Of a stretch of DNA of 42,742 nucleotides, positions 7,956 through 42,698 are shown piece after piece. The stretch covers positions 1-42,742 of the IMG/VR virus record IMGVR_UViG_3300017655_000009; one strand, 5' to 3'. The translations under genes were made by a program, and so were the position numbers. This DNA comes from a virus (taxonomy: Duplodnaviria; Caudoviricetes). How positions within the stretch are numbered: position 1 is the first letter of the stretch; each line of letters begins with the position of its first letter. The notes under the pieces are model-generated. The model was not told the DNA's origin. It saw nothing but the letters and a program-made list of their open reading frames with translations, and did no database searches.

Positions 7956-8480
7956 TCAGAATTTAACCGGTTTGCGAAGTTTCTTACATTTGGATTTCTT
8001 TTTAGTTTTAAGCTTCTTACAGTAAATATCACCATCCACTATAACTCTCTTGGCTTTTATCTTACCGGTAGCTGATACATAAAGTTTGGCTGTTACCGTA
8101 CCTTCAACCTTAATGTTTCCTCCACATTTAATCTGTTTAACAGAAACGTCACCATCACAATATATATTTCCAGTAACGTACACCGAGAATTTAGAGATGA
8201 TGCTGCTACAATGTAAATTTCCAGCAATGAAAATGGTTCTCTTTGCATTGATATCTTCATATCTAACATCAGCATCAATATTTTTGAGATTTCTTAGCAG
8301 CCATAAAGCATCCTCTGCTGAAACAAGTTGTTCGTCTTCTTTCGTGCTACAAATATGTCTTGAGATTTTTTCTAAAACTTTCTCATGGCTACTCTTTTCA
8401 CCATCAAATTGATCATTAAACCATTTGATGAATGATTCGCTTGCGAATTTTTCAGTAAGCCATTTTTTACTTATTTTCAA
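7956..8480 (-). CDS. Beta-helix repeat protein (bactofilin/FapA-like C-terminal half)
   Basis: Repeated G-[ND]-[IV]-x units (IAGNLHC, VTGNIYCDGDVSV, CGGNIKVEGTV, VDGDIYC). Confidence 0.6.
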   Translation of the reverse strand: MKISKKWLTEKFASESFIKWFNDQFDGEKSSHEKVLEKISRHICSTKEDEQLVSAEDALWLLRNLKNIDADVRYEDINAKRTIFIAGNLHCSSIISKFSVYVTGNIYCDGDVSVKQIKCGGNIKVEGTVTAKLYVSATGKIKAKRVIVDGDIYCKKLKTKKKSKCKKLRKPVKF

Positions 8481-26297: not shown

Positions 26298-26918
26298 TTA
26301 TTTTCCATTTGTGTTATCCTGAAGTAAAGCTATATCGTACATATCATAATCAGCTCTATAAATGAATAATGATTTCCCATCAACGATTAGACCTGTACTC
26401 TTATCAATATTGGTTGCAAAATAACCAACTTTATTACCAGTAAATGCTGCCAATGGAATACCCGATTGGGAACGCACTAAAATTAACACACTTTGACCGA
26501 CTGTATAGTTCTTCATTTCGTTTACCATCCTATTGATAATAGGAGTTGAACGATCGAAGTTTTTAATATTTACCTTCTTGGCAAATTCATTGAATACATC
26601 GGGTAATTCTTTATCTCGAATGATCATAGAACTGCCGACGTGAACCATTGATTTACCACCGATAGTTAAAGAAACCACAGCCGATTTCTGAACTATCTTA
26701 CCTTCGCTGTCTCGAATTTCAAATTTACTATCAGCACCAAGACTAATTGATTTACCTTCAATGTGATCAATGACTTGAGAATTTTCATCATAGGTATTGA
26801 TGACTTGATCTCGTCCTTTGATTGCTTCCTCAAAGCTGTTATACATATATTGCCCAGAGGTACAACTTGCCAATATGAATACCATCAATACCAATACAAC
26901 CATTTTAATTGTTTTCAT
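26298..26918 (-). CDS. Lipoprotein, DUF5052-like
   Basis: Signal peptide with lipobox LASC; RSQSGIP and DGKSLFIYRA segments. Confidence 0.7.
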   Translation of the reverse strand: MKTIKMVVLVLMVFILASCTSGQYMYNSFEEAIKGRDQVINTYDENSQVIDHIEGKSISLGADSKFEIRDSEGKIVQKSAVVSLTIGGKSMVHVGSSMIIRDKELPDVFNEFAKKVNIKNFDRSTPIINRMVNEMKNYTVGQSVLILVRSQSGIPLAAFTGNKVGYFATNIDKSTGLIVDGKSLFIYRADYDMYDIALLQDNTNGK

Positions 26919-31255: not shown

Positions 31256-32974
31256 TTAATATTTAAAGGCGTTACGTATAGACTGCACAAATCTATCTTC
31301 AATGTTACCGATGACATTGGCAGGTATATCAAGAAACTTATTAACTTTACTTGATATAAATAAATTCAACTTACGAGATACGTCAGGCTCGTTAAGGTTA
31401 ATAGCAGCAAAGTTTGCCAAGAAATCTAATAGACCAATATTATTTACAAAGAGTGCATAGTTATTGGAATCATTTACAGACATGGCATTATATAAGCTAC
31501 GAATAGTAAGAGATACTTGAACCTCTAGGGGGAGTCCATTTCTGGACATCGAATCCCCAGATCCGAATCTATTAATAGAAATATAGTCGACAATACCCAT
31601 ATCACAGTTAAATACACCCTTAGCATTTGCTTGAACTAGGAAAGGTGCATAGTAACCATTTGGTCCCAACTGACGAGGGAATGCCAATGCTATAATCATG
31701 TTAAGAGGGGCCATAACGTTTAAGAAGAATGCTTCTGGATCTCCATATGGAGAATGAAGATGAATGTCCAAAGTAAATGATCTATTGAAAGCCGATTCCG
31801 ACCAGATTTCAGGGAGAGTCATATTTGCCCCAGTAATAACAGTTCTAAATCCAACGTTAAGGTTATTCATAATACCCTTCATCATACCGATATTAGGATT
31901 ATCCTTATCATTGAAGTTTTCCATCATCATTTGAGTAGTATTCATAATTTGAGTCTCATAATTTTCAGGATTCATAGAGTCCAGTTGTTTACCTGCACCG
32001 ATACCCATTAAGAAGGATGCTTCCCTAGCAGCACCAGACGCTTTATTAAGAATTCCATCTAACATGGATTTTGTAGTGGAGTTAGAGCCAGATTCACTCA
32101 TACCAGAAGATTGCTTATTATAATAAAGAGACATTACACCACTTTCTCTAGCCCAGTTAAATACACCACTACCTTTATCGGCTTCAACACCTTTAGCTTC
32201 CCAGTTCATCCATTGATATGTGTCAGATCCAGGTCGTATTTGTTTATCCTTAATTCCAAGATAGATAGCAGATGTTCTGTTTAATGCATTTACAATTTTC
32301 AGCCATTCAGCATGTTGAGTTTGAAAGGAGTAGTATCTAGCAACTTTCCCTTCAAGAACTTGAGTTAATGTGGCTTCAATAGATTCAATCGATTGCTTAG
32401 CAGCAGATTCAATAACTTTGATTAATGAACCTCTGGTTTGATCTGTAACACCTTTACCGGTTAGAAATCTTGGACCACCAGGGATAATATGACATATAGG
32501 CATATCCAATAATACATTTTCCGTAAACATTCTACCAAAATTGGAGCCAGTTGGACGCATATCAGCAGTCCAAAGGAATTGGCTAGGTAGTCCGTATATG
32601 GTACGTAAAGAAACTAATTTAAAATCAGACATTTCAGAATAGTTTGCATAAATACTTTTTATTTGCTCAAGATTGATAGTTGAATCATCATTAGCTTGAT
32701 CTGGATTAGCAGCAGTTTCTTCAATAGTTTGAGATTGTGCTATTTGGTTAGGCGGTGCATCGTCAGAAATCTTTTCCATATAAGTATTAGATGCAGACTG
32801 AGCAGAAGACCATCCTAAACTATGCTGAACCCATGTACGACCATCAGCATCTTTCTCTACAGATATTGAAGTTACAACTTGGTTTTTACTTAAAGTGGCA
32901 CCAGCTCCTTTTGCTTCTAAGCTTGGCCCTGTCCGAACATTTAAGGCATCCGCGAGAACTTTATATTCTGCCAT
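31256..32974 (-). CDS. SH3b-domain baseplate/tail-tube initiator-like protein (T4 gp48-like fold)
   Basis: ADALNVRTGPS...GWSS (SH3b); LPEIW...RSFTLDIHL...GLPLEVQVSLTI; follows the TMP gene. Confidence 0.65.
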   Translation of the reverse strand: MAEYKVLADALNVRTGPSLEAKGAGATLSKNQVVTSISVEKDADGRTWVQHSLGWSSAQSASNTYMEKISDDAPPNQIAQSQTIEETAANPDQANDDSTINLEQIKSIYANYSEMSDFKLVSLRTIYGLPSQFLWTADMRPTGSNFGRMFTENVLLDMPICHIIPGGPRFLTGKGVTDQTRGSLIKVIESAAKQSIESIEATLTQVLEGKVARYYSFQTQHAEWLKIVNALNRTSAIYLGIKDKQIRPGSDTYQWMNWEAKGVEADKGSGVFNWARESGVMSLYYNKQSSGMSESGSNSTTKSMLDGILNKASGAAREASFLMGIGAGKQLDSMNPENYETQIMNTTQMMMENFNDKDNPNIGMMKGIMNNLNVGFRTVITGANMTLPEIWSESAFNRSFTLDIHLHSPYGDPEAFFLNVMAPLNMIIALAFPRQLGPNGYYAPFLVQANAKGVFNCDMGIVDYISINRFGSGDSMSRNGLPLEVQVSLTIRSLYNAMSVNDSNNYALFVNNIGLLDFLANFAAINLNEPDVSRKLNLFISSKVNKFLDIPANVIGNIEDRFVQSIRNAFKY

Positions 32975-33062: not shown

Positions 33063-36000
33063 TTACATAAAAGTACCTTTAGCAATTTGGGCAACCACAG
33101 AACTCTTATCGTTACGTTTAGTAGCCGATCCACCAACAGGGTTGGATGGAGTTGGCGATGTATTAGCAACGATTGGTTTGGATTGCTTAGGTTGTTTGGA
33201 AGTAGGATATTGCTTAGAGATATTTCCAAAATATGCTTTAAGGATTTCTTTAGATTCATCAGAGATGTCAACCAATTTCTCAATACCATTTGCAATAACA
33301 GTCAGAAGTTCAATCATCTTCACAAAATATGTTTCATTGGAATCTTTAGTATTATTGTCTACAACGTCTTGAACTCTTTGAGTGTATTGAGTGATATCAG
33401 GAGGACCAAACTTGTTATCATATGCAGGATCACCACCGCCGGATTCGTTCAGCCAAGCTGGTACGTTTATTCCGGTAGTATTAAGAGCTTTAGAACCACC
33501 CGATCCACCACCAAACTCGGAAGATATATACTTACCGAGATTAGGGTTAGGAGTCATAGGAGTACCATAGATAGGCATCAATTCATCTCTAGATCTTCCA
33601 TAAAGCTTAGTTTCAATTGGTTCAAAGTGCCAAGGCTCCCAATCCATAGGACGGTATAAGCCATATTTGGCAAGTTCACTTACAGAAAGTTGTTGAATCC
33701 AGCCACTAATATCAGCAGCGATACCTACAGCATGGTTACTTCTGCCAGGGTCTGCTACCCATTTCTTACGTTCGGCCTCAGATGCACCAGGGTGTTCAGC
33801 TTTCCATTTAGCAATAAGTTCTAATTGTTCAGCATCAGATCTGTGACCAGAGTTAATGCTAAGAGGTTTTCCATATGCTTTAGCGAGATTATTCAAACGT
33901 TCAGCAACGAATTCATGAACGTCGTTATCTCCAGTTACCATGGAATAGTTAGAGGAGTTTCTGCTTTTGACAGCATTAATTTCAGAATTAGTATAAGTTT
34001 TAGTAGCAGCATTGTAATCTCCGCCAGCAGCTCCAACTGCACCACCAGACATAATAGCGGCGTAGAATGGATCGGATTTCTTCATCAATTCTTTATCAAG
34101 AGAGCTAGTAAATTCAGAAGGGTCGAAGCCATACATTTCTTTAACTTTATCACCACCAAGGAATGTTCCCATAGCACCAAGAGTCGAAGCCATAGTATAT
34201 TCCTTAAGTCCACCGGAAGTTGCAGCATTAACACCTGCGCCTGCACCACTGGTTGCTCCAAGCATTGCATAATCTACGGATGACATCTTAGAAGGATCGA
34301 CTACATCCTTAAGATCCATTCCTGTATTTTCTTTAAGATTTCTCAAAACTTTTTGCAGATATTCAGAACCGTGTCCAGCTCCATAGCCACCATTATCATT
34401 AACGCCAATACCCTTTTGAACATTGCCAGGGCCGACGTTATATGCAAGAATAGCTTTAGCGCCATCACCATTAAACATATCAAACATTTGACGGAGATAT
34501 GCGATGGACATAGTAGCATTAGTATTTTTATCAAATGCCATATCATGATTATAACTGCCAAGTTTCAGAGTCTTTTCATAGATACCTTTAGCTGTACCTT
34601 CAAGCAATTGCCCCCAACCTCTAGCAGACGAGGAGGAATTGGCTGCTTTTGAATACAGATGACTTTCAGTTTCAGCAAGTGCCAACCACAAGTGTGGATT
34701 GATACCGAATTTATCAGCGATAGATTTAATCATACCAAGATCAGATGCAGTAGCATCAGTTCCAGAGATAGCACCATTTATTGCATACGAAAGGTCATTT
34801 CGTCTGTCAAATGTAGGATCGCCACCACCTTTTTCATCAGCTACAGCCATAGAGTCAAGCCATCTAGACAGTTTGCTACCAGCTTTTCTTGTATCGTCAC
34901 CAATACTTTCACCAGTGCTTTCCATTGCTTCTTTAGCAGATTTACCACGATCGCCGAAGATATTATCCCACATATCTCCAACCCAAGTTGTAGTTTTGTT
35001 CCAGAGATTCTTCATACCAGTTCCAAAGTTTTTCAGCGGGCTAACAATCCAATCATTCCATTTTTCACCAATCCAATCGCCCACACCAACAAATCCTTCT
35101 CTGATGGCTCCGAGAGCACGGCTAATAGGTTTAGCAATCCAAGAATCCCATTTTTGTCCAACCCAATCACCTATAGTTTTAAAACTATCTCCAACGAATC
35201 CTACAAATTCTTTAACAGGTTCTGGTACATATTCTTCCCATACTTCTCCGAGCCATGTTTTAGCAGCAGTCCATTTTTCAGATACGAAGTTTCCAAATTT
35301 TTCTAGTGGATCAACAATCCAGCTATTCCATTTTTCGCCAATCCATTCTTTGGAAGTATTCCAAGCTTCTTTAATCCACTCACCAAAATCTTTAACAGGT
35401 TGTACTATCCAAGAATCCCATTTTTCAGCAACCCAGTCTTTAGCTTTACCCCAAGAATCTTTAATCCATTCACCGAATTTCTTAACAGGTTCTACAATCC
35501 AAGAATCCCATTTTTCAGAAACAAATTTCGTGAATTTCTTCCAGAGTCGTCCAGTTAATGCGCCGAGAGATTTAAGAACTTCTGCTCCAGCATCATACAC
35601 ACCAGACAATATTTCAGAAGTCATATTTACAAATCCAGTAGTCAAGTTTCTAACAGTTTCCACAGGAGCACTGTTCCAGAAAGCAGAAGCAGTGTCTACA
35701 GTGAAGTTCTTAATTTGACCATATTTCTCCTTAGTCCAATCAGCTATTTCATCTTTCTTTTCATAAAGTTTACGAACTCCAGCTTCACCAAGGAAGGCTC
35801 CAGCGACACCACCAACAAGTCCACCAACTACAGTACCAGCACCAGGTACAATGGAACCACCTAATGCCCCAAGTCCAGCACCAGCAGCGATACCACCACC
35901 TATACCTCCAAGTGTACCCCAAATACTTTTCTTAGCACTATCTCTTTCTTCTTCAGTATTTGCTTTAGATAAGTTGTATGCACTCATACCAAGTGTTCCT

Positions 36001-39000
36001 ACACCAATAGCAGTACCAAGTACAGGAATACGTTTCATGAATTTACCAGCTTTACCAAGTATACCTAATTTACTTCCAACAACTGCTGCTCCTCCAGTAG
36101 CGGCGGCAGCACCTTTACCTTTAAATGGATTTAATTTCTTATACCATGGAGTTTTACCAGCTTTACCACCACCTGGTACTATAAGACCACCAGGTATGTC
36201 ACTAGCTACTTCCCCAGGAGTAACCTTTGGTTTTGGACCACGAGGTTTACCATCAGGTGTATCTATATCAGGATCACCATTCCAAAGTTTCTTCAGTTTA
36301 GTTCCAAGACCTTTAACAGAATCTACCACATTTTTAAACATCGGTGCCATTAACCCAGCAAGTAACGGCCATCCATTTTTGATTACAGAACTAATATCTT
36401 TAAGAGTATCCAAGAAGCTTTTACCCTTTTCATCAGTTCCCATTCTATTAGTAGCATCCAATAATTGGATATTTGAAACAGTCATCTCATTAAGCAAACC
36501 AATACTAGCATTATGATAATCTTCTTCAGTTTTAACATTTTTAGTCAGATTTTGAATAGATGCAATTCGTGGAACAACATCATTCCACTTATTGGAACCC
36601 ATTCTACCTATGAATGCACCAGCTTTAGCAAATATCGATCTAGCTTTAAATGTTCTAGGTTTACCACCTTTAGCTATAGCTCCTTCAGCACCTTCTTCTG
36701 CAACAGCCGAAGGTAGATGTAAAGCTGTAGGGGATTTTGGAGTTGATACAGGATTTGCATGTCCTTCATCACCAACATGAGCTGCTGGTGAAGCAGCAAA
36801 CATTTGCAGATTCATTTTGTGTCTCAATCCACCACTAGTAGACATACCCATTCTCTTAGCAGCAGTATGGTTATTAGTGTTTTTACCACCACAACCCATA
36901 ACTCTTACACATTCTTCAATTTTCTTCAAAATATCAACTTCTTTAACTTTCTCAACCTCTTTAACTATTTCGACTTCTTTAATCTTTTCAATTCTATCAA
37001 GGGCACCACCGACTACATATACAGGTTTACCTGACAATCCGGTAGATCCCATAATGTCACGAGTCTTTTTACCGAAGCCAAGCAATCTTCCTACAGATTT
37101 AAATGCACTACCAATCATACCAGCAGTGAATTTAGCCATACCCCATACAGCTTTACCTACAGTAGTAGTTAACTGCCACAGCCCTTTAGTTAATTCAACA
37201 ACACCTCTACCAAGTGCTCTAACACCTTTAATAGTTGCAGGAATTGCATCTTTAGCAAGATTAATCATACCCATAAAGGAATCTTTAAGTAAACCACCTA
37301 CACCTTTAGTGATAGTCCATAATCCTTTAGTTACTTGACCGACGACATTAAACAATCCTTTAAGTGGTTTTACAACCAATCCATCTACCAAAGTAGAAGC
37401 AAATCTACCAATAGATTTGAAGAAATCAGACTTAAAGAATTTAATCATAGAGTTTCCAATTCCGCCGATAGCTTTTGCTACACCACCAATGGCTTTGAGA
37501 GGAAGATTTATAAGTTTATATACACCTTTACCGAAGAGAGTGATACCTTTGCTAAGCATTTGTGGAATATAAGTAAAGAGTTTCTTAGTCTGTCCCCAAA
37601 GTGCTGTAACAGGTTTCATCACCATAGTTTTAAACATATTCTTCATAAAGGTAAACGGACTCTGGATGATATCCAAAATCTTACCGAAGAAGCCACGTCT
37701 TCTTCTATTACCACGAAGACCACGCATTCCTTTAGCTGCTACAGATGGGCTACCAAATGTATCTACCAAAACGTTAGCCATAGTCTCGACGTTATATCCT
37801 ACTCCGTCAAGTTGACCCATAACTTCATTACGAATATCTCTAGTATATTCAAGCATAGTAGTATTATGAGCAGTAAATCTATCATAGTCGAAGGTTCCAA
37901 CAAGAGTAAGACCTCTCTTATCGTCTCCTTGATGAGAATTCTTCACAACGATACCTTGCTTCAGTTGAGCATTGATACTTTGAGTAGATTCATCAATACT
38001 TTTGAGTTTGCTTCCATAAGAGATCAGAATACCTTTAATTTGATCAAGGATGCCACCTCTGGCCCTTCCACCCATATCGCCATCACCAAGGTCCATTTTC
38101 AAGCCACCCTTATCGGATGCGAACATTTGGAGATTAAGTGGAATACGACCACCTTTCTTGTGTGGATCACCATTAGCTACAGCTTTCATTTCTTCAGGAG
38201 ATGGGAGCATAGAATTAGCATTGGAGAATGCATCAGTTAATCCTGCACCAACCGTATGCTGTTGAGCTTGACGATGTTTTTCCATCTGAGCTTCAAAGTA
38301 ATTATCAAACGAATCTCTTCTAGGAGCTGCATTTTCTTTATCTTTAGCTTCTCTCATAGAGTCTCTATATTCCATATCAAATTTATCATCAGGATTAAGT
38401 TCTATTAAACCATGCTGTCTATCATAAGCATCAAGTTTTTCTTTAAGTTTCTTTTTACGATTTTCAATAACCATATCTTTATAATCTTGGTCGATACGAT
38501 CTTTAGGATCAAGATTCATACCAACGTCAATATCATAAGGATTGTAGGTAGCGCCACTCATTCCCATACTCTTGAGTGTCTTATCATCTTTCTTCTTGTC
38601 AGCTTCAATGATGGAATTAGCGAACAATGCCAGACCCTTAGCAGGTGCTGTCAAGATTGCTCCTAATCCTTTACCAATTGCATTGAAGAATTTGCTAAAC
38701 ATATTTTTCAGAGGATCGGTAATATTCTTAGTTACAAAGTTTTTAAGTGGAATACCAATGTTATTATTGAATGTATCAACGAAAGCTTTCTTGAAGGAAT
38801 CTTTCAATTCCGACCAAGAATTCTTAATGTTTTTACCAATAATACCAAAAGCATCTTTAAGAGGACTCATTACATTTACAAATGGAGTTTTGATAGAGTT
38901 TTCAAACCAATCCTTAATTACAATACCTTTCTTAGTAACCCAATGCTTGAAAGGAGATAAGAATTCGTCTCTGACGAAATCCCTAACGTTACCAAGCAAT

Positions 39001-42000
39001 CCTCCAACTTTCTTACCAAATTTATTAGCAGTACCAAACATCATTTCTTTAAATTTCTCAGAAGAGGTTAAGATAGATACAGATGCACCGACCATTGCTC
39101 CCACCAGCGGACTACCAGTTAACATCCCGGTCATTGAACCGAATAATGCACCGGAAAGACCTCTAGGGAGAGCAGATTTAATCTTAGTACGCATTTCAGG
39201 GGAGATTAATCCCTTTTTAAAGTTACCTTTTTCATCAGTTTCACCAAATAACATTGCTTGGAATTTACTAGATTTAGCAGCAAATCCAACAGCGGAGCCG
39301 ATTGTCAATCCGAGTAATGGGCCGCCAGGAAGCAATAAGCTTGCGCCCATACCAAGTATTCCACCAGCACCCATAGCAGGTAAAATTGTTTTCATTTTTT
39401 CTCTAAGCTGAGGACTGATAACGCCTTTCTTATCATCCCCATTACCAAAGAGCCATTCTTGCATTCTCTTAGATTTAGCAGCATAACCAACAGCAGAACC
39501 TAACGTTAAACCAACCAGTGGGCCGACACCTGGAAGCAATAAGCTTGCACCCAGACCAACCATACCACCACCTAAGATAGATGGCATACTGTTTTTAACT
39601 TCTAACAGAATTTTCTTATAGTGAGGAGGAATTACACCAGGTCTTCCCTCTTGATCATTACCGAAGAGGAATTCTCTGAATTTTTTAGAATGCCCAGCAA
39701 ATGCTGTAGTGGAAGCTAACATGCCCCATAGCAGAGGGCCACCTGGAAGAAGTACACTCGCACCCATACCAAGTAAACCAGTAGCAAGACCTTTGGGAAG
39801 GAATCCTTTAAATTCCTTTTTCCACTGATTGATGCCTTTTTCGACATCTGCATCAGATTCGCCTTCTTTAGATTTGAAGAGACTATCAAACATCTTGAAC
39901 GTACTCTTCAATTGATTCATTACTCCAGAGAGTAAACCATCGCCTTTACGTTTAGTAACTAGATTGCCTTCTTCATCTACAGTCTCTTCTTTCGCTCCGA
40001 ATAATCCAGTTTTGACACTTTCCATAATATTTTTAGAGTATTTCTTAACATATGCAAATACAGAAGTTTCTTTATTTTCTTTAACTTCCTGACCATTGGC
40101 TTTCTTATAGGCAGCGCCTGTAAAGAAATGTCTCATTTGGTTGGAATAATCTTTAAAAGAGTTACCTACGTCAGCAAATAATCCACCAGTGTAGAATCCT
40201 TCTTGGTTCTGAGAACCGAGTAAGACTTCTTTCATTTTATCAAATTTAGATTTAGCAAAATCTTTAATCTTTTCTATAAATGGAGTAAATTTTTCTTGGA
40301 ATTTAGTAAAGATGCCTTCTTCACCAAAGAATTTCTCATGGAGTGGATTTAAGATTCTTGTTTCAACCCACTTCAAAGATTTATCAATTGCATTAGAAAT
40401 CCTTTGGGTCATCCTTGAGAAGAATCCACTTTTCTGTGGCCCATCACTACCATCACCGGGGCCATCGCCATCATCATCACCACCGCCACCGGAAGACTTC
40501 TTCTTACCTGGACTTCCGAAGATCAGACTGTGGATCATTTCATCAAGACGATTCATTCCTTTAGAAACAAGGTTTGCAGGAGCCATACCTTGCTTAAATA
40601 CTCGATATTTACCTTTCAGAGTAGCTTCTTTACTAATCGCTTCAATGAATTTTCTAAATCCAGTTCTTTGATTATTCACATCATTTACAGACATTTTCTT
40701 CATTATTTCATCATCAGAATCACCATAACTTTTCTCTACATCATTCTTTCCTTGAGGGCTATGATCTCCAGGAGGTGTTGGAGTTGGACTTCCGCTACCA
40801 CCAGTTCCATGACCACCACCATAATCAGTAGTATCAAGTTTACGTCCAGTAATTCTCTTAATAGCATTAGAACTAGCTTGAATAGACCCGATTTGTACCA
40901 CCTTAATACCTTCAGTTAAAATATTTTTAATATCTTTAAGCAGAGTATTGGTTGTACCATATGAATATTTGCTAGAAACTCTAGGAGCATCTAATCCACC
41001 ATGACCAATACCCAAACCAGATTCTCTCAGCTCTTGTTCAATAGATTCAACAGCTTTAGAACTACCACCACGACCTTTAATTATTTCATGAGCGATTCTA
41101 TTTTGCATACCCTTAGGCATACTCATGAATGCAGCTCTAATCAAACGATATGAACGTTGATCTCGAAGATTCAATCCATCCATATCACTAGCGTGAGTTT
41201 GTTTGTAAGGGTTATATTGCTGCCCTTTAACTGCAAGATGTTCCAAAAAGGTGTCCAGTTCATCCATCATAAATTCGGATGAACCACCACTAACTTTAGA
41301 CAATTTATTTTTCATAGCATCACGAACGCCACTCATTTCATAAGTAATACCTTGACGAATTCGTTTGCTATGGTCTTTCAGCATACTGCTAGATTCAACA
41401 AATTTACCAGTAGTATAATTGTAGAGCATAACCTTTTCGCTTTTACTTACAGCAGCATAGATATTGCTTAACAATGCAGGAATTACTTCAGTTAAAGCTT
41501 TATCAGCTCTACCATTGTATTGCATAACGCCTCTATGGAATTTAGAAGTATCAATACCTCGCTTAGCAGCCGTATCAATACCAAATATAGAACCAAGCAT
41601 TTGTTTGAATGGGCTAGAGTAATCACCCTTCATCTTATTAAATCCTAATATCATTGAAGAAAATAATCCTGCTAAGGATTTATCGAAACTACCCATAGCC
41701 AATTTCAATGAATTAGGCATCAGACCAGATACAATCAAGTCCGAAATAAATCCAAGAGGGTTATTCTTTATGGCTCCCATAATTCCACCTTTTCCACCTG
41801 CGAGCTTAGCAAATGAGGTTGCCATACCAAGAGATGTTCCTTGAAACCAAGTTCCAAAGTTTTTCTTAATGAGTTCACCATATGCCTTCATATTCAAACC
41901 ACTACCACTCATTACATCTTCAAAGCCAGTTGCTCGATTAAATTCTTCTTGCTTTGGAGCAAGGCCGGTTTTAATCTCACGCAATTCAGCTATTACATTA

Positions 42001-42677
42001 TCATAGAAGCTAAGAGTTTTATTCATGTGATCTACCATTTGATTATTCTGAAATTCAACCAAATTGGTAAGAAGATTATTAGTATCAGACATACTTTTGA
42101 TCATTTCAGTATGCATTTGAGACATAAGACTCATTTGCATAGAATTGATTTTCCTTGAGTTACCGACCATATAGTTTGCAGATCTTTCAGCAGAGTCAAT
42201 AATAGTTTCCATCATAGCTTTGGTTCTTATATTCGAACCAGTTTCAGTTGCCTTAGTTTCGATAGAGATGGAATTGCTATCTTCATTAATAGAAAAGGTA
42301 GCATCACTTTCGTCATCATCACCGAAATTGAAATTAAAACCGGAGTCTCCATCTCCTCCAAAATTATATTCTTTCTCATGAGCTTGCATTTCTCTATCAA
42401 AATTATTAATCTTGCCACTACGCAAATCTTCAAATGCGTTTTTCTTCAGATCGTCAACATCTTTGAGAAAAGTAGAAATCATAGTGTTAACACCATGACT
42501 AGTTGTAGATCCTTTTCTCGTCACAAAGCTTTTTACGTATTCAGTTCCAGATCTAAACTGTTCCTTATTCTTTTCATAAGTTCCAACAGTTACAGGCATT
42601 TCGTTAGCCACAGCAGTTTTAGCAGAATAATATAATGATTTACCTAGATTAGCTAGGTATGATTTTGCCAGTGCCAA
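33063..42677 (-). CDS. Tape measure-like protein with lytic transglycosylase and M15 (VanY-like) peptidase domains
   Basis: Amphipathic and Trp repeats; Gly-zipper segments; SLT motifs AETES, ARGWGQL, AYNVG; M15 motifs SGHRS, SNH...AAD, EPWH. TTG start after GGAGGTG. Confidence 0.88.
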   Translation of the reverse strand: MALAKSYLANLGKSLYYSAKTAVANEMPVTVGTYEKNKEQFRSGTEYVKSFVTRKGSTTSHGVNTMISTFLKDVDDLKKNAFEDLRSGKINNFDREMQAHEKEYNFGGDGDSGFNFNFGDDDESDATFSINEDSNSISIETKATETGSNIRTKAMMETIIDSAERSANYMVGNSRKINSMQMSLMSQMHTEMIKSMSDTNNLLTNLVEFQNNQMVDHMNKTLSFYDNVIAELREIKTGLAPKQEEFNRATGFEDVMSGSGLNMKAYGELIKKNFGTWFQGTSLGMATSFAKLAGGKGGIMGAIKNNPLGFISDLIVSGLMPNSLKLAMGSFDKSLAGLFSSMILGFNKMKGDYSSPFKQMLGSIFGIDTAAKRGIDTSKFHRGVMQYNGRADKALTEVIPALLSNIYAAVSKSEKVMLYNYTTGKFVESSSMLKDHSKRIRQGITYEMSGVRDAMKNKLSKVSGGSSEFMMDELDTFLEHLAVKGQQYNPYKQTHASDMDGLNLRDQRSYRLIRAAFMSMPKGMQNRIAHEIIKGRGGSSKAVESIEQELRESGLGIGHGGLDAPRVSSKYSYGTTNTLLKDIKNILTEGIKVVQIGSIQASSNAIKRITGRKLDTTDYGGGHGTGGSGSPTPTPPGDHSPQGKNDVEKSYGDSDDEIMKKMSVNDVNNQRTGFRKFIEAISKEATLKGKYRVFKQGMAPANLVSKGMNRLDEMIHSLIFGSPGKKKSSGGGGDDDGDGPGDGSDGPQKSGFFSRMTQRISNAIDKSLKWVETRILNPLHEKFFGEEGIFTKFQEKFTPFIEKIKDFAKSKFDKMKEVLLGSQNQEGFYTGGLFADVGNSFKDYSNQMRHFFTGAAYKKANGQEVKENKETSVFAYVKKYSKNIMESVKTGLFGAKEETVDEEGNLVTKRKGDGLLSGVMNQLKSTFKMFDSLFKSKEGESDADVEKGINQWKKEFKGFLPKGLATGLLGMGASVLLPGGPLLWGMLASTTAFAGHSKKFREFLFGNDQEGRPGVIPPHYKKILLEVKNSMPSILGGGMVGLGASLLLPGVGPLVGLTLGSAVGYAAKSKRMQEWLFGNGDDKKGVISPQLREKMKTILPAMGAGGILGMGASLLLPGGPLLGLTIGSAVGFAAKSSKFQAMLFGETDEKGNFKKGLISPEMRTKIKSALPRGLSGALFGSMTGMLTGSPLVGAMVGASVSILTSSEKFKEMMFGTANKFGKKVGGLLGNVRDFVRDEFLSPFKHWVTKKGIVIKDWFENSIKTPFVNVMSPLKDAFGIIGKNIKNSWSELKDSFKKAFVDTFNNNIGIPLKNFVTKNITDPLKNMFSKFFNAIGKGLGAILTAPAKGLALFANSIIEADKKKDDKTLKSMGMSGATYNPYDIDVGMNLDPKDRIDQDYKDMVIENRKKKLKEKLDAYDRQHGLIELNPDDKFDMEYRDSMREAKDKENAAPRRDSFDNYFEAQMEKHRQAQQHTVGAGLTDAFSNANSMLPSPEEMKAVANGDPHKKGGRIPLNLQMFASDKGGLKMDLGDGDMGGRARGGILDQIKGILISYGSKLKSIDESTQSINAQLKQGIVVKNSHQGDDKRGLTLVGTFDYDRFTAHNTTMLEYTRDIRNEVMGQLDGVGYNVETMANVLVDTFGSPSVAAKGMRGLRGNRRRRGFFGKILDIIQSPFTFMKNMFKTMVMKPVTALWGQTKKLFTYIPQMLSKGITLFGKGVYKLINLPLKAIGGVAKAIGGIGNSMIKFFKSDFFKSIGRFASTLVDGLVVKPLKGLFNVVGQVTKGLWTITKGVGGLLKDSFMGMINLAKDAIPATIKGVRALGRGVVELTKGLWQLTTTVGKAVWGMAKFTAGMIGSAFKSVGRLLGFGKKTRDIMGSTGLSGKPVYVVGGALDRIEKIKEVEIVKEVEKVKEVDILKKIEECVRVMGCGGKNTNNHTAAKRMGMSTSGGLRHKMNLQMFAASPAAHVGDEGHANPVSTPKSPTALHLPSAVAEEGAEGAIAKGGKPRTFKARSIFAKAGAFIGRMGSNKWNDVVPRIASIQNLTKNVKTEEDYHNASIGLLNEMTVSNIQLLDATNRMGTDEKGKSFLDTLKDISSVIKNGWPLLAGLMAPMFKNVVDSVKGLGTKLKKLWNGDPDIDTPDGKPRGPKPKVTPGEVASDIPGGLIVPGGGKAGKTPWYKKLNPFKGKGAAAATGGAAVVGSKLGILGKAGKFMKRIPVLGTAIGVGTLGMSAYNLSKANTEEERDSAKKSIWGTLGGIGGGIAAGAGLGALGGSIVPGAGTVVGGLVGGVAGAFLGEAGVRKLYEKKDEIADWTKEKYGQIKNFTVDTASAFWNSAPVETVRNLTTGFVNMTSEILSGVYDAGAEVLKSLGALTGRLWKKFTKFVSEKWDSWIVEPVKKFGEWIKDSWGKAKDWVAEKWDSWIVQPVKDFGEWIKEAWNTSKEWIGEKWNSWIVDPLEKFGNFVSEKWTAAKTWLGEVWEEYVPEPVKEFVGFVGDSFKTIGDWVGQKWDSWIAKPISRALGAIREGFVGVGDWIGEKWNDWIVSPLKNFGTGMKNLWNKTTTWVGDMWDNIFGDRGKSAKEAMESTGESIGDDTRKAGSKLSRWLDSMAVADEKGGGDPTFDRRNDLSYAINGAISGTDATASDLGMIKSIADKFGINPHLWLALAETESHLYSKAANSSSSARGWGQLLEGTAKGIYEKTLKLGSYNHDMAFDKNTNATMSIAYLRQMFDMFNGDGAKAILAYNVGPGNVQKGIGVNDNGGYGAGHGSEYLQKVLRNLKENTGMDLKDVVDPSKMSSVDYAMLGATSGAGAGVNAATSGGLKEYTMASTLGAMGTFLGGDKVKEMYGFDPSEFTSSLDKELMKKSDPFYAAIMSGGAVGAAGGDYNAATKTYTNSEINAVKSRNSSNYSMVTGDNDVHEFVAERLNNLAKAYGKPLSINSGHRSDAEQLELIAKWKAEHPGASEAERKKWVADPGRSNHAVGIAADISGWIQQLSVSELAKYGLYRPMDWEPWHFEPIETKLYGRSRDELMPIYGTPMTPNPNLGKYISSEFGGGSGGSKALNTTGINVPAWLNESGGGDPAYDNKFGPPDITQYTQRVQDVVDNNTKDSNETYFVKMIELLTVIANGIEKLVDISDESKEILKAYFGNISKQYPTSKQPKQSKPIVANTSPTPSNPVGGSATKRNDKSSVVAQIAKGTFM
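34974..35513 (-). repeat. Six 30-aa (90-nt) Trp-rich repeats within TMP
   Basis: KWDSWIVEPVKKFGEWIKDSWGKAKDWVAE and variants; CCAAGAATCCCATTTTT recurs at multiples of 90 nt. Confidence 0.85.
39030..39800 (-). repeat. Four Gly-rich hydrophobic hairpin repeats within TMP (approximate bounds)
   Basis: GAS.LLPG.GPL.G...S...A..S.KF...LFG repeated about every 63-70 aa. Confidence 0.8.
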
Positions 42678-42698
42678 TTATATGCACCTCCCTTAAGT

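Follow-up and report, generated by a model that had tools for sequence, protein, structure and literature searches.

The window analysed here, 42,742 nt of DNA from a virus of the class Caudoviricetes (positions 1 to 42,742 of IMG/VR record IMGVR_UViG_3300017655_000009), encodes a 3204-aa tape measure protein (TMP; 33063..42677, minus strand) in which two short motifs resemble the cleavage site of Prp, the protease that acts on ribosomal protein L27. Tag 1 (LNLQMF-A, aa 1514-1520) is located at 38118..38138 and tag 2 (MNLQMF-A, aa 1955-1961) at 36795..36815, both on the minus strand. The locus raises the question of whether tags placed this deep in a protein direct its cutting by the Prp of the host, as an earlier note on this DNA had proposed. 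Judged from sequence comparisons, the tags appear to be real and selected, and they are most likely a host-Prp processing signal; that host Prp cuts the TMP at both tags (predicted cuts F1519/A1520 and F1960/A1961), whatever the timing, is considered fairly probable. Tag conservation and the failure to find a phage prp speak for the proposal of the earlier note.

The protein was assigned by its homology to the annotated TMPs of AR9/PBS1/phiR1-37-like jumbo phages (tblastn and PHROG tape measure families). In tblastn, the 3204-aa open reading frame (ORF) matched AR9 g204 (E 2e-9) and phiR1-37 g083 (E 9e-6), and it was also similar to the TMPs of the Bacillus phages PBS1 and BpSp. The window is thus part of a phiKZ-like jumbo phage. 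The gene is preceded by a Shine-Dalgarno sequence, GGAGGTG (42685..42691, minus strand), 7 nt upstream of its TTG start.

The positions and residues of the tags were re-derived and agreed exactly with the earlier note. LQxF occurs twice in the whole TMP, in tags 1 and 2, and the composition-based expectation was 4e-5 for NLQMFA and 0.006 for the looser [LMI]xLQxF[AS]. The codons of the two tags differ at synonymous positions (L CTC/CTG, F TTC/TTT, A GCA/GCT), so a recent DNA duplication looks unlikely. Both tags have Phe at P1 followed by small residues at P1' and P2' (F/AS and F/AA), Gln at P3, Leu at P4, Asn at P5 (Asn or Asp in the Prp site rule), and a hydrophobic residue at P6 (LNLQ, MNLQ). 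P2 is Met in both and F/L in the L27 consensus. The residues after the predicted cuts (ASDK, AASP) lack the L27-type A(S/H)KK, as do those of the verified phage substrates (ADQS and ASNN; PMC9405229). Instead of following an N-terminal leader of 9-15 residues, the predicted cuts lie far inside one ORF; the tags would work like an N-terminal Prp leader and are not members of that class. The linkers that carry them, called low-complexity in the earlier note, were length-variable and poorly conserved, but only borderline disordered at the tags, where FoldIndex was near zero (aa 1520, -0.03; aa 1940, -0.01; aa 1970, +0.10). Tag 1 as a short query gave no matches among GenBank phages or PDB.

For close relatives, a search with TMP aa 1-600 was made, which gave 99 homologues, and the nine closest were compared together with the TMP of locus L015 and the query (P0001). 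Five of these 11 close orthologues carry the tag at both joints (P0001, P0002, P0003, P0004, and P0006). In these five the flanks have diverged until they are unalignable, while L-Q-x-F is kept at both joints: L, Q, and F are invariant in tag 1, and in tag 2 L, Q, F, and A are the sole invariant residues of aa 1921-2008. Tag 2 of P0002, RLKLDLQHFASN, is near-identical to the verified capsid site of phage 80alpha, KLKLNLQHF'ASNN (PMC9405229 Table 1), P0006 has GGITMDLQRFAG at both sites, and P0004 has Asn at P2. In a quickly built 16-row tree (the thorough search was unfinished), the untagged P0005 was nested among tagged rows, so P0005 has lost the tag. The tag found no match in the remaining 90 of the 99 homologues or in the TMPs of AR9, BpSp, and phiR1-37, and loose LQxF was not enriched in these 99 (32 seen, 29.7 in shuffles). 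Just after tag 1 the query has a half-tag-like LKMDLG (aa 1526-1531; 38085..38102, minus strand). Such a motif, L-K-(M/L)-(D/N)-(L/F)-G, lies 6-12 residues past tag 1 in P0001-P0004 (LKLDFG, LKLDLG, and LKLNLG in P0002-P0004), and P0005 has LRINTS at this position.

The same two joints were then considered across the family. A profile built on aa 1300-2130 had matches in 390 proteins, from which the best 150 were taken (139 of them new); the family-wide counts below rest on 241 proteins, including these best 150. The tag was defined strictly as [LMIFV][DN]LQxF[AGS] and loosely as LQxF[AGS]. The 139 new proteins contained 15 strict copies in 12 proteins (shuffle mean 0.53). Sequences were anchored on the conserved GQLDG block, by which 158 of the 241 were placed and 83 dropped. 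Linker 1 was taken to start where the helical block stops (or 250 residues upstream) and to extend as far as the anchor, and linker 2 as 200 residues from the VYVVGG block (found in 63 of the 241 proteins) or else as +270 to +470; both windows were defined after the query had been inspected. Among the anchored proteins, the strict tag occurred 23 times in 71,431 linker residues versus 0 times in 458,549 others, and the loose form 31 versus 18 times. The tag was thus present in 22 of 158 homologues (linker 1 in 10, linker 2 in 21, both in 9), one of which, P0156 (DTILQMFG), may be a chance match. The earlier note had made its reading depend on conservation in related TMPs, and this was found in part: the same two joints are tagged in 5/11 close and 22/158 anchored homologues, and the rest are untagged.

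The residues of the linker sites were compared further. P1' was Ala in 22 of the 31 loose linker sites, and all 31 have Phe at P1 and a small P1' by search definition. P2 was identical at both sites in five of the nine double-tagged proteins (p ~0.006, ignoring kinship). With a matrix made from 55 N-terminal phage tags, 23 linker sites were top-ranked; the core columns of the matrix are preset by the search pattern, and its flanks alone are independent. The lineages that carry strict linker tags are ~20-26% identical in this region. In a FastTree phylogeny of 145 of the 158 rows (first 560 aa), 20 tagged rows stood in about eight or nine separate places, scattered among untagged ones, which points to gain on several occasions or to frequent loss. 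All hydrolase domains, which belong to several families, lay past linker 2, both in the query and in 12 of 12 distant tagged homologues scanned (of 17). Degenerate tags were also seen at the linker-2 position of two homologues that are otherwise untagged (P0219, PMNLQLMAN; P0194, RMDLGLFAN).

The L27 consensus is MLxx(D/N)LQ(F/L)F'A(S/H)KK, the 80alpha substrates are KFNLQFF'ADQS and KLNLQHF'ASNN, and the capsid site was verified with His at P2 (PMC9405229). According to the SaPrp-peptide structure 7KLD, the hydrophobic residues at P1, P2, P4, and P6, Gln at P3, Asn at P5, and a small P1' matter (PMC9261936). Pneumococcal Prp has been reported to cut SUMO-L27 at F/A, behind a folded domain, in vitro (bioRxiv 2025.08.01.668195), so a free N-terminus is not required. 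The L27 leaders of Paenibacillus and Bacillus, encoded beside prp, read MLKLDLQLFASKK and MLRLDLQFFASKK.

For comparison, N-terminal tags were collected from IMG/VR. A scan with the DNA of xNLQMFA gave at least 119 matches, of which 17 were removed for Phe at P4 and 9 for having no real ORF; among the matches listed, NLQMFA was N-terminal in 91 of 93 in-ORF cases. Structural roles were assigned to 17 of the 21 N-terminal NLQMFA proteins scanned, as capsid (8), scaffold (7), or major tail protein (2); the other 4 had no assignment. A second scan with P2 left free gave at least 123 matches in 121 loci, 60 of them N-terminal by the rule applied, with P2 being R in 17, L in 12, F in 8, M in 6, T in 4, A in 3, K in 3, H in 2, Y in 2, and others in 3; Asn, the P2 residue of P0004, was not seen among the 60 N-terminal matches listed. 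A prp profile built from two bacterial Prps was run on 160 loci with long flanks (L081-L160, L202-L281), and among the matches listed a prp homologue accompanied the N-terminal tag in 39 of 94 loci and was found in 0 of the 66 others. Many of these loci are near-copies, representing about eight distinct families. Phage prp stood beside 34 P2-Met and 5 P2-Arg tags and never beside P2 Leu, Phe, His, Lys, or Thr (small numbers). For P2-Met N-terminal tags, this means a phage prp in 34 of 64 loci and none nearby in the other 30.

Internal Prp-type tags are not unique to TMPs, as three minor head (MuF-like) proteins also have one: L129:2808-3809 (minus strand), L206:3025-4263 (plus strand), and L299:10-576 (minus strand). 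In all three the tag is placed just upstream of a short variable C-terminal domain, and Prp may release this MuF C-terminal cargo. The main text of a paper on MuF toxins (PMC5576092) contains neither 'Prp' nor 'cleav'.

Which protease would be at hand was judged from five related records (G001-G005; 207-247 kb, four rated complete). Counterparts 62-89% identical were found in G001 for 15 or 16 of the 16 window proteins tested. Prp (PF04327) was not detected in any of the five records, and the B. subtilis control was positive. The two-sequence Prp profile, which does detect phage Prps, found none in 17,247 six-frame segments from the window and L004-L077 (best E 2.5). The phage's own prp, the search for which had been proposed in the earlier note, was therefore found neither in the window nor in the five relatives, by Pfam or by profile. 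With Pfam, 207 of the 246 G001 ORFs yielded an S77 head protease and a papain-like C1 peptidase and no Prp. The S77 protease is present in all five relatives. The C1 peptidase (G001:C1:227100-227834) was seen in G001 only and is without a counterpart in the tagged G002. The proteasome/Ntn-type family PF00227, to which Rrp-like enzymes would belong, was matched in none of the five records, a search by which a distant Rrp could be missed; Rrp has been described as an alternative, unspecific L27 protease (bioRxiv 2026.08.10.744006). No other protein of G001-G005 contained a linker-type tag, and when the DNA pattern was counted in the five records it was not in excess of the reversed control genome-wide. 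One candidate was discarded, the LQFFA that G001, G002, and G005 have in a conserved 501-507 aa protein of the RNA polymerase family: it has no D/N at P5, is missing in the G004 copy, and lies within a conserved protein.

The host was approached through the same records. G001 and G002, both complete and double-tagged, encode SpoIIID (G001:C1:82054-82371 and G002:C1:182716-182985; not seen in G003-G005), an SLH lysin, and NrdI/NrdF. SpoIIID and the SLH lysin in these tagged relatives point to a host among the spore-forming Bacilli, which would have Prp; prp has been reported from all Firmicutes (bioRxiv 2025.08.01.668195). The untagged G004 also has an SLH domain, so absence of the tag does not go with absence of Prp. 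A host search with the G001 lysin against genome contigs (one scan) gave a single weak match in Actinomycetota (34%), and matches to phages and plasmids were of 26-34% only. G001 has no tRNA genes and G002 has two. Genomes were also sought for the distant tagged proteins: none were found for P0151 and P0220, and P0213 gave C-terminal domain matches only.

A second sequence device was found at the same joints. An H-A-x-G-L...L-H-x-G-E-x-V cassette is present in 16 of the 158 anchored homologues (17 copies), and 12 of the 17 copies lie in the same two linkers (9 in linker 1, 3 in linker 2; p 1e-7). Linker 2 carries it in P0008-P0010 and linker 1 in P0015, P0122, P0134, P0142, P0174, P0191, P0215, P0224, and P0239; in P0007 and P0009 it occurs near aa 2620-2705. 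The cassette is similar to the C-terminal region of the diffocin TMP (PDB 8V3W, 737-773, E 7e-5) and of other phage TMPs; elsewhere it is found near TMP C-termini, here internally at the Prp-tag joints. It loosely resembles VPR-AEGG...GEHGTEVVTP of T5 pb2 and may itself be a cut site. Tag and cassette did not occur together in any of the 12 linker-cassette proteins, an exclusion that is not significant (Fisher p 0.22). The query lacks [LVIA]HxGE, as well as the T5/lambda-type TMP joint (x-A-x-G-G ... G-x-E-V). A regular expression for the S74 self-cleaving motif gave two weak matches only in the 241 proteins.

Cutting by Prp at both linkers would yield pieces of 1519, 441, and 1244 aa; these sizes and the new ends ASDKGG and AASPAA, as set out in the earlier note, were recomputed and were correct. 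Predicted piece 1 (aa 1-1519, 166 kDa; 38121..42677, minus strand) comprises the family-wide N-terminal domain, whose profile matched 104 of the 104 proteins examined, Gly-rich hydrophobic hairpins, and a helical block. The hairpins are four Gly-rich hydrophobic helix-turn-helix repeats (aa ~960-1210; 39048..39800, minus strand; Kyte-Doolittle peaks 1.58-1.73) and represent a candidate membrane-inserting region. Predicted piece 2 (aa 1520-1960, 48 kDa, pI 10.1; 36798..38120, minus strand) has the conserved GQLDGVGYN block and amphipathic repeats with an 11/7/22-residue period (autocorrelation 0.38 at lag 11, aa 1670-1870). Repeats of 11 residues typify TMPs, and their presence together with C-terminal cell-wall hydrolases agrees with the assignment of the protein. 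In an atlas search, piece 2 scored at best 0.89 to viral clusters and 0.87 to a T4 tape-measure cluster, both below threshold and a lead only. Predicted piece 3 (aa 1961-3204, 133 kDa; 33066..36797, minus strand) would carry a second Gly-rich hydrophobic pair (aa 2259-2297; 35787..35903), Trp-rich repeats with a 30-residue period (aa ~2340-2570; 34968..35660; autocorrelation 0.53 at lag 30), an SLT lytic transglycosylase domain (aa 2649-2758; 34404..34733; PF01464, E 3.5e-16), and a VanY-type peptidase domain (aa 2926-2992; 33702..33902; PF02557, E 4.7e-8), all on the minus strand. The separation of membrane hairpins from the Trp-repeat and muralytic region, as foreseen in the earlier note, would apply to the repeats at aa ~960-1210, but the hydrophobic pair at aa 2259-2297 would stay with the hydrolases.

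In the sequence of events that we propose, the 1244-aa piece with its two cell-wall hydrolases would be freed while the tail is being assembled in the producer cell, and the pieces would remain associated within the tail, as those of T5 pb2 do; this timing is mildly preferred to a cut that follows ejection. Once a new cell is infected, piece 3 would attack the cell wall, and the hydrophobic hairpins of piece 1 would enter the membrane. A wider reading takes the TMPs of Firmicute jumbo phages as polyproteins with two fixed processing joints and lineage-specific devices, such as Prp tags or the T5-like cassette, in which Prp tags would be shielded in the virion and cut after ejection, the Prp of the new host, a protease essential for ribosome maturation, triggering DNA entry and limiting host range; we regard this as conceivable but unlikely.

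Several points weigh against processing by host Prp. The ruler would have to stay continuous during tube building, and Prp could hardly enter a finished tube. Either an early cut would leave the pieces bound to each other, or one piece alone would measure (in the AR9 TMP, ~1460 aa precede the hydrolase-type domain, a length similar to that of piece 1), or cleavage would follow ejection. The cleavage itself is a prediction from sequence, and 80alpha mutants with uncleavable capsid and scaffold proteins are reported to be viable (PMC5744158). The tag is optional in the family, being absent from 6/11 close (P0005, P0007-P0010, and the L015 TMP) and 136/158 anchored homologues; P0005 lacks it though 57% identical, and the AR9 and BpSp TMPs lack it though their Bacillus hosts have Prp. 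Neither tag nor cassette was found in 124 of the 158 homologues, and in the linkers of these 124 no shared replacement motif was detected (de novo 5-mers were lysine-rich or anchor-derived words). Some relatives are off consensus (GFLQFFA, GFLQLFG, LNLQNFA). No TMP relative split at the two joints was found when aa 1520-2130 was sought in proteins of <1762 aa. Prps are reported to be species-specific (PMC9261936). Met at P2 is off the L27 consensus, and a part of the Met tags may be adapted to enzymes that phages encode. Finally, the window covers 42.7 kb compared with 207-247 kb in the relatives, so an own prp may lie elsewhere in the genome.

Among other explanations, the tags might serve to aid assembly or act as a decoy, by binding either Prp or some other factor of the host, any cut being incidental. 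The viability of the uncleavable 80alpha mutants fits such a role, and the authors of that study raise the possibility that the leader interacts with a common chaperone (PMC5744158); absence of the tag from 136/158 homologues fits it as well. The features needed for catalysis are nevertheless kept, with P1 Phe and small P1' in 31/31 linker sites (by definition) and P1' Ala in 22, and the tags stand at module joints that in other lineages are used by the other TMP joint cassette, which makes pure binding rather unlikely.

Cutting of the tags by a phage-encoded protease, be it a Prp-like enzyme that escaped recognition, the C1 peptidase seen in G001, or the S77 protease of the head, is improbable. 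A prp gene of their own is frequent in temperate phages whose tags have Met or Arg at P2 (39/94 tagged loci listed), G001 does have the C1 peptidase, all five relatives have S77, and the window is a small part of its own genome. Against this, no Prp was found in G001-G005 by Pfam or the two-sequence profile, the C1 peptidase has no homologue in the tagged G002, and the S77 enzymes of such phages are reported to cut after A-x-E (PMC7411985), whereas the tags read LQMF/A. There was also no other linker-type tag in the G001-G005 proteomes and no Rrp-like PF00227 match (0/5).

The tags could also be relics that arrived together with linker DNA taken from tagged structural genes and have ceased to matter; this is very improbable and largely refuted. 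Such tags are frequent among the genes of Firmicute phages, and P0005 has lost its tags, but L-Q-x-F is invariant while flanks and synonymous sites change, and 23/23 strict copies lie in two linkers of lineages ~20-26% identical. Chance resemblance, for which the shortness of the motif and the lack of loose LQxF enrichment in the first 99 homologues could be cited, has a negligible probability and is refuted by two copies at 4e-5 each and by positional recurrence in 22 homologues.

Processing of the TMP by host Prp would have its nearest parallels in known systems that share part of its features. The 80alpha capsid gp47 and scaffold gp46 have the same P6-P1' pattern (KLNLQHF'A and KFNLQFF'A; PLNLQMF-A and KMNLQMF-A here; PMC9405229) and are structural proteins of a phage for which no phage prp is reported (PMC5744158; PMC9405229). 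In 80alpha, a temperate Staphylococcus siphophage, an N-terminal leader of 13-14 residues is trimmed from head proteins (PMC5744158; PMC9405229), whereas the present TMP, from a lytic-type jumbo phage, has two tags 1519 and 1960 residues deep and three large predicted pieces. The pre-L27 extension (Prp is MEROPS C108, PF04327) shares the L-[DN]-L-Q-x-F/A core; the TMP sites differ in being internal, with Met at P2 and no A(S/H)KK downstream. The major tail protein of phi13 is reported to have a Prp motif (PMC5744158), and tail-tube tags were also among the IMG/VR matches, but the phi13 tag is N-terminal and on the tube subunit, not the ruler. The T5 TMP, pb2, is cut during tail morphogenesis at a point that separates a hydrophobic stretch from a muralytic part, and the tail retains both pieces (bioRxiv 2022.09.20.507954, where the maturation cleavage of lambda gpH is cited alongside). 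It differs in its single cut near the C-terminus at another sequence (VPR-AEGG) and in its Gram-negative host without Prp; the present TMP has an L27-type tag at each of two joints, and its predicted C-terminal piece would have 1244 aa. The TMPs of AR9 (g204), vB_BpuM-BpSp (gp263), and phiR1-37 (g083) have a homologous N-terminal domain (E 2.5e-25, 4.7e-29, and 2.9e-19) and a C-terminal hydrolase-type domain, but are shorter (1925, 1797, and 2553 aa), with no Prp tag and no hairpin block detected. Phage-encoded Prp systems of the Streptococcus phage Cp-1 type (PMC9405229) use the same tag family, and no prp was found in the present group. The A-x-E motif of S77 prohead processing in phiKZ-like phages (PMC7411985) does not occur in the LQMF/A tags, and jumbo-phage processing as described in the accessible text of PMC7411985 and PMC10052503 concerns head-protein cuts only. 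A full-text literature search, which covered few subscription papers and main texts without supplements, gave no natural internal Prp site and no action of Prp on a TMP; the accessible text of PMC5380687, PMC12323379, PMC10541612, and PMC5512222 likewise contained nothing on internal Prp sites or TMP.

The window is a whole contig, and the rest of it encodes gyrase, a divergent DnaB, an RNA polymerase beta subunit, and virion proteins. Downstream of the TMP gene lies a 572-aa virion structural protein (31256..32974, minus strand; phrog_20401), without a Prp tag in the window copy and in the five relatives. Its N-terminus has what we take to be an SH3-like stretch (no Pfam match), followed by a polar linker. 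A 174-aa protein (7956-8480, minus strand) had weak FapA/bactofilin beta-solenoid matches, both under the curated cut-off. A DUF5052 protein (26298-26918, minus strand), ~40% identical to Lactobacillus phage proteins, is present in G001 and was not found in G002-G005. All five relatives keep a tubulin/FtsZ-like protein (G001:C1:137490-138671; weak Pfam match, under cut-off), which may be a PhuZ-type spindle protein.

The known role of Prp is to trim short leaders from the N-termini of L27 and of the 80alpha capsid and scaffold proteins. If the TMP is cut as predicted, Prp would also be a polyprotein-processing enzyme for a phage tail. The tags would then name the protease and the exact bonds for TMP maturation in jumbo phages, for which the accessible literature gave no mapped cut. 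The two joints divide these proteins of 3000-5000 aa into modules, and, if the prediction is true, the specificity of Prp could shape phage host range.

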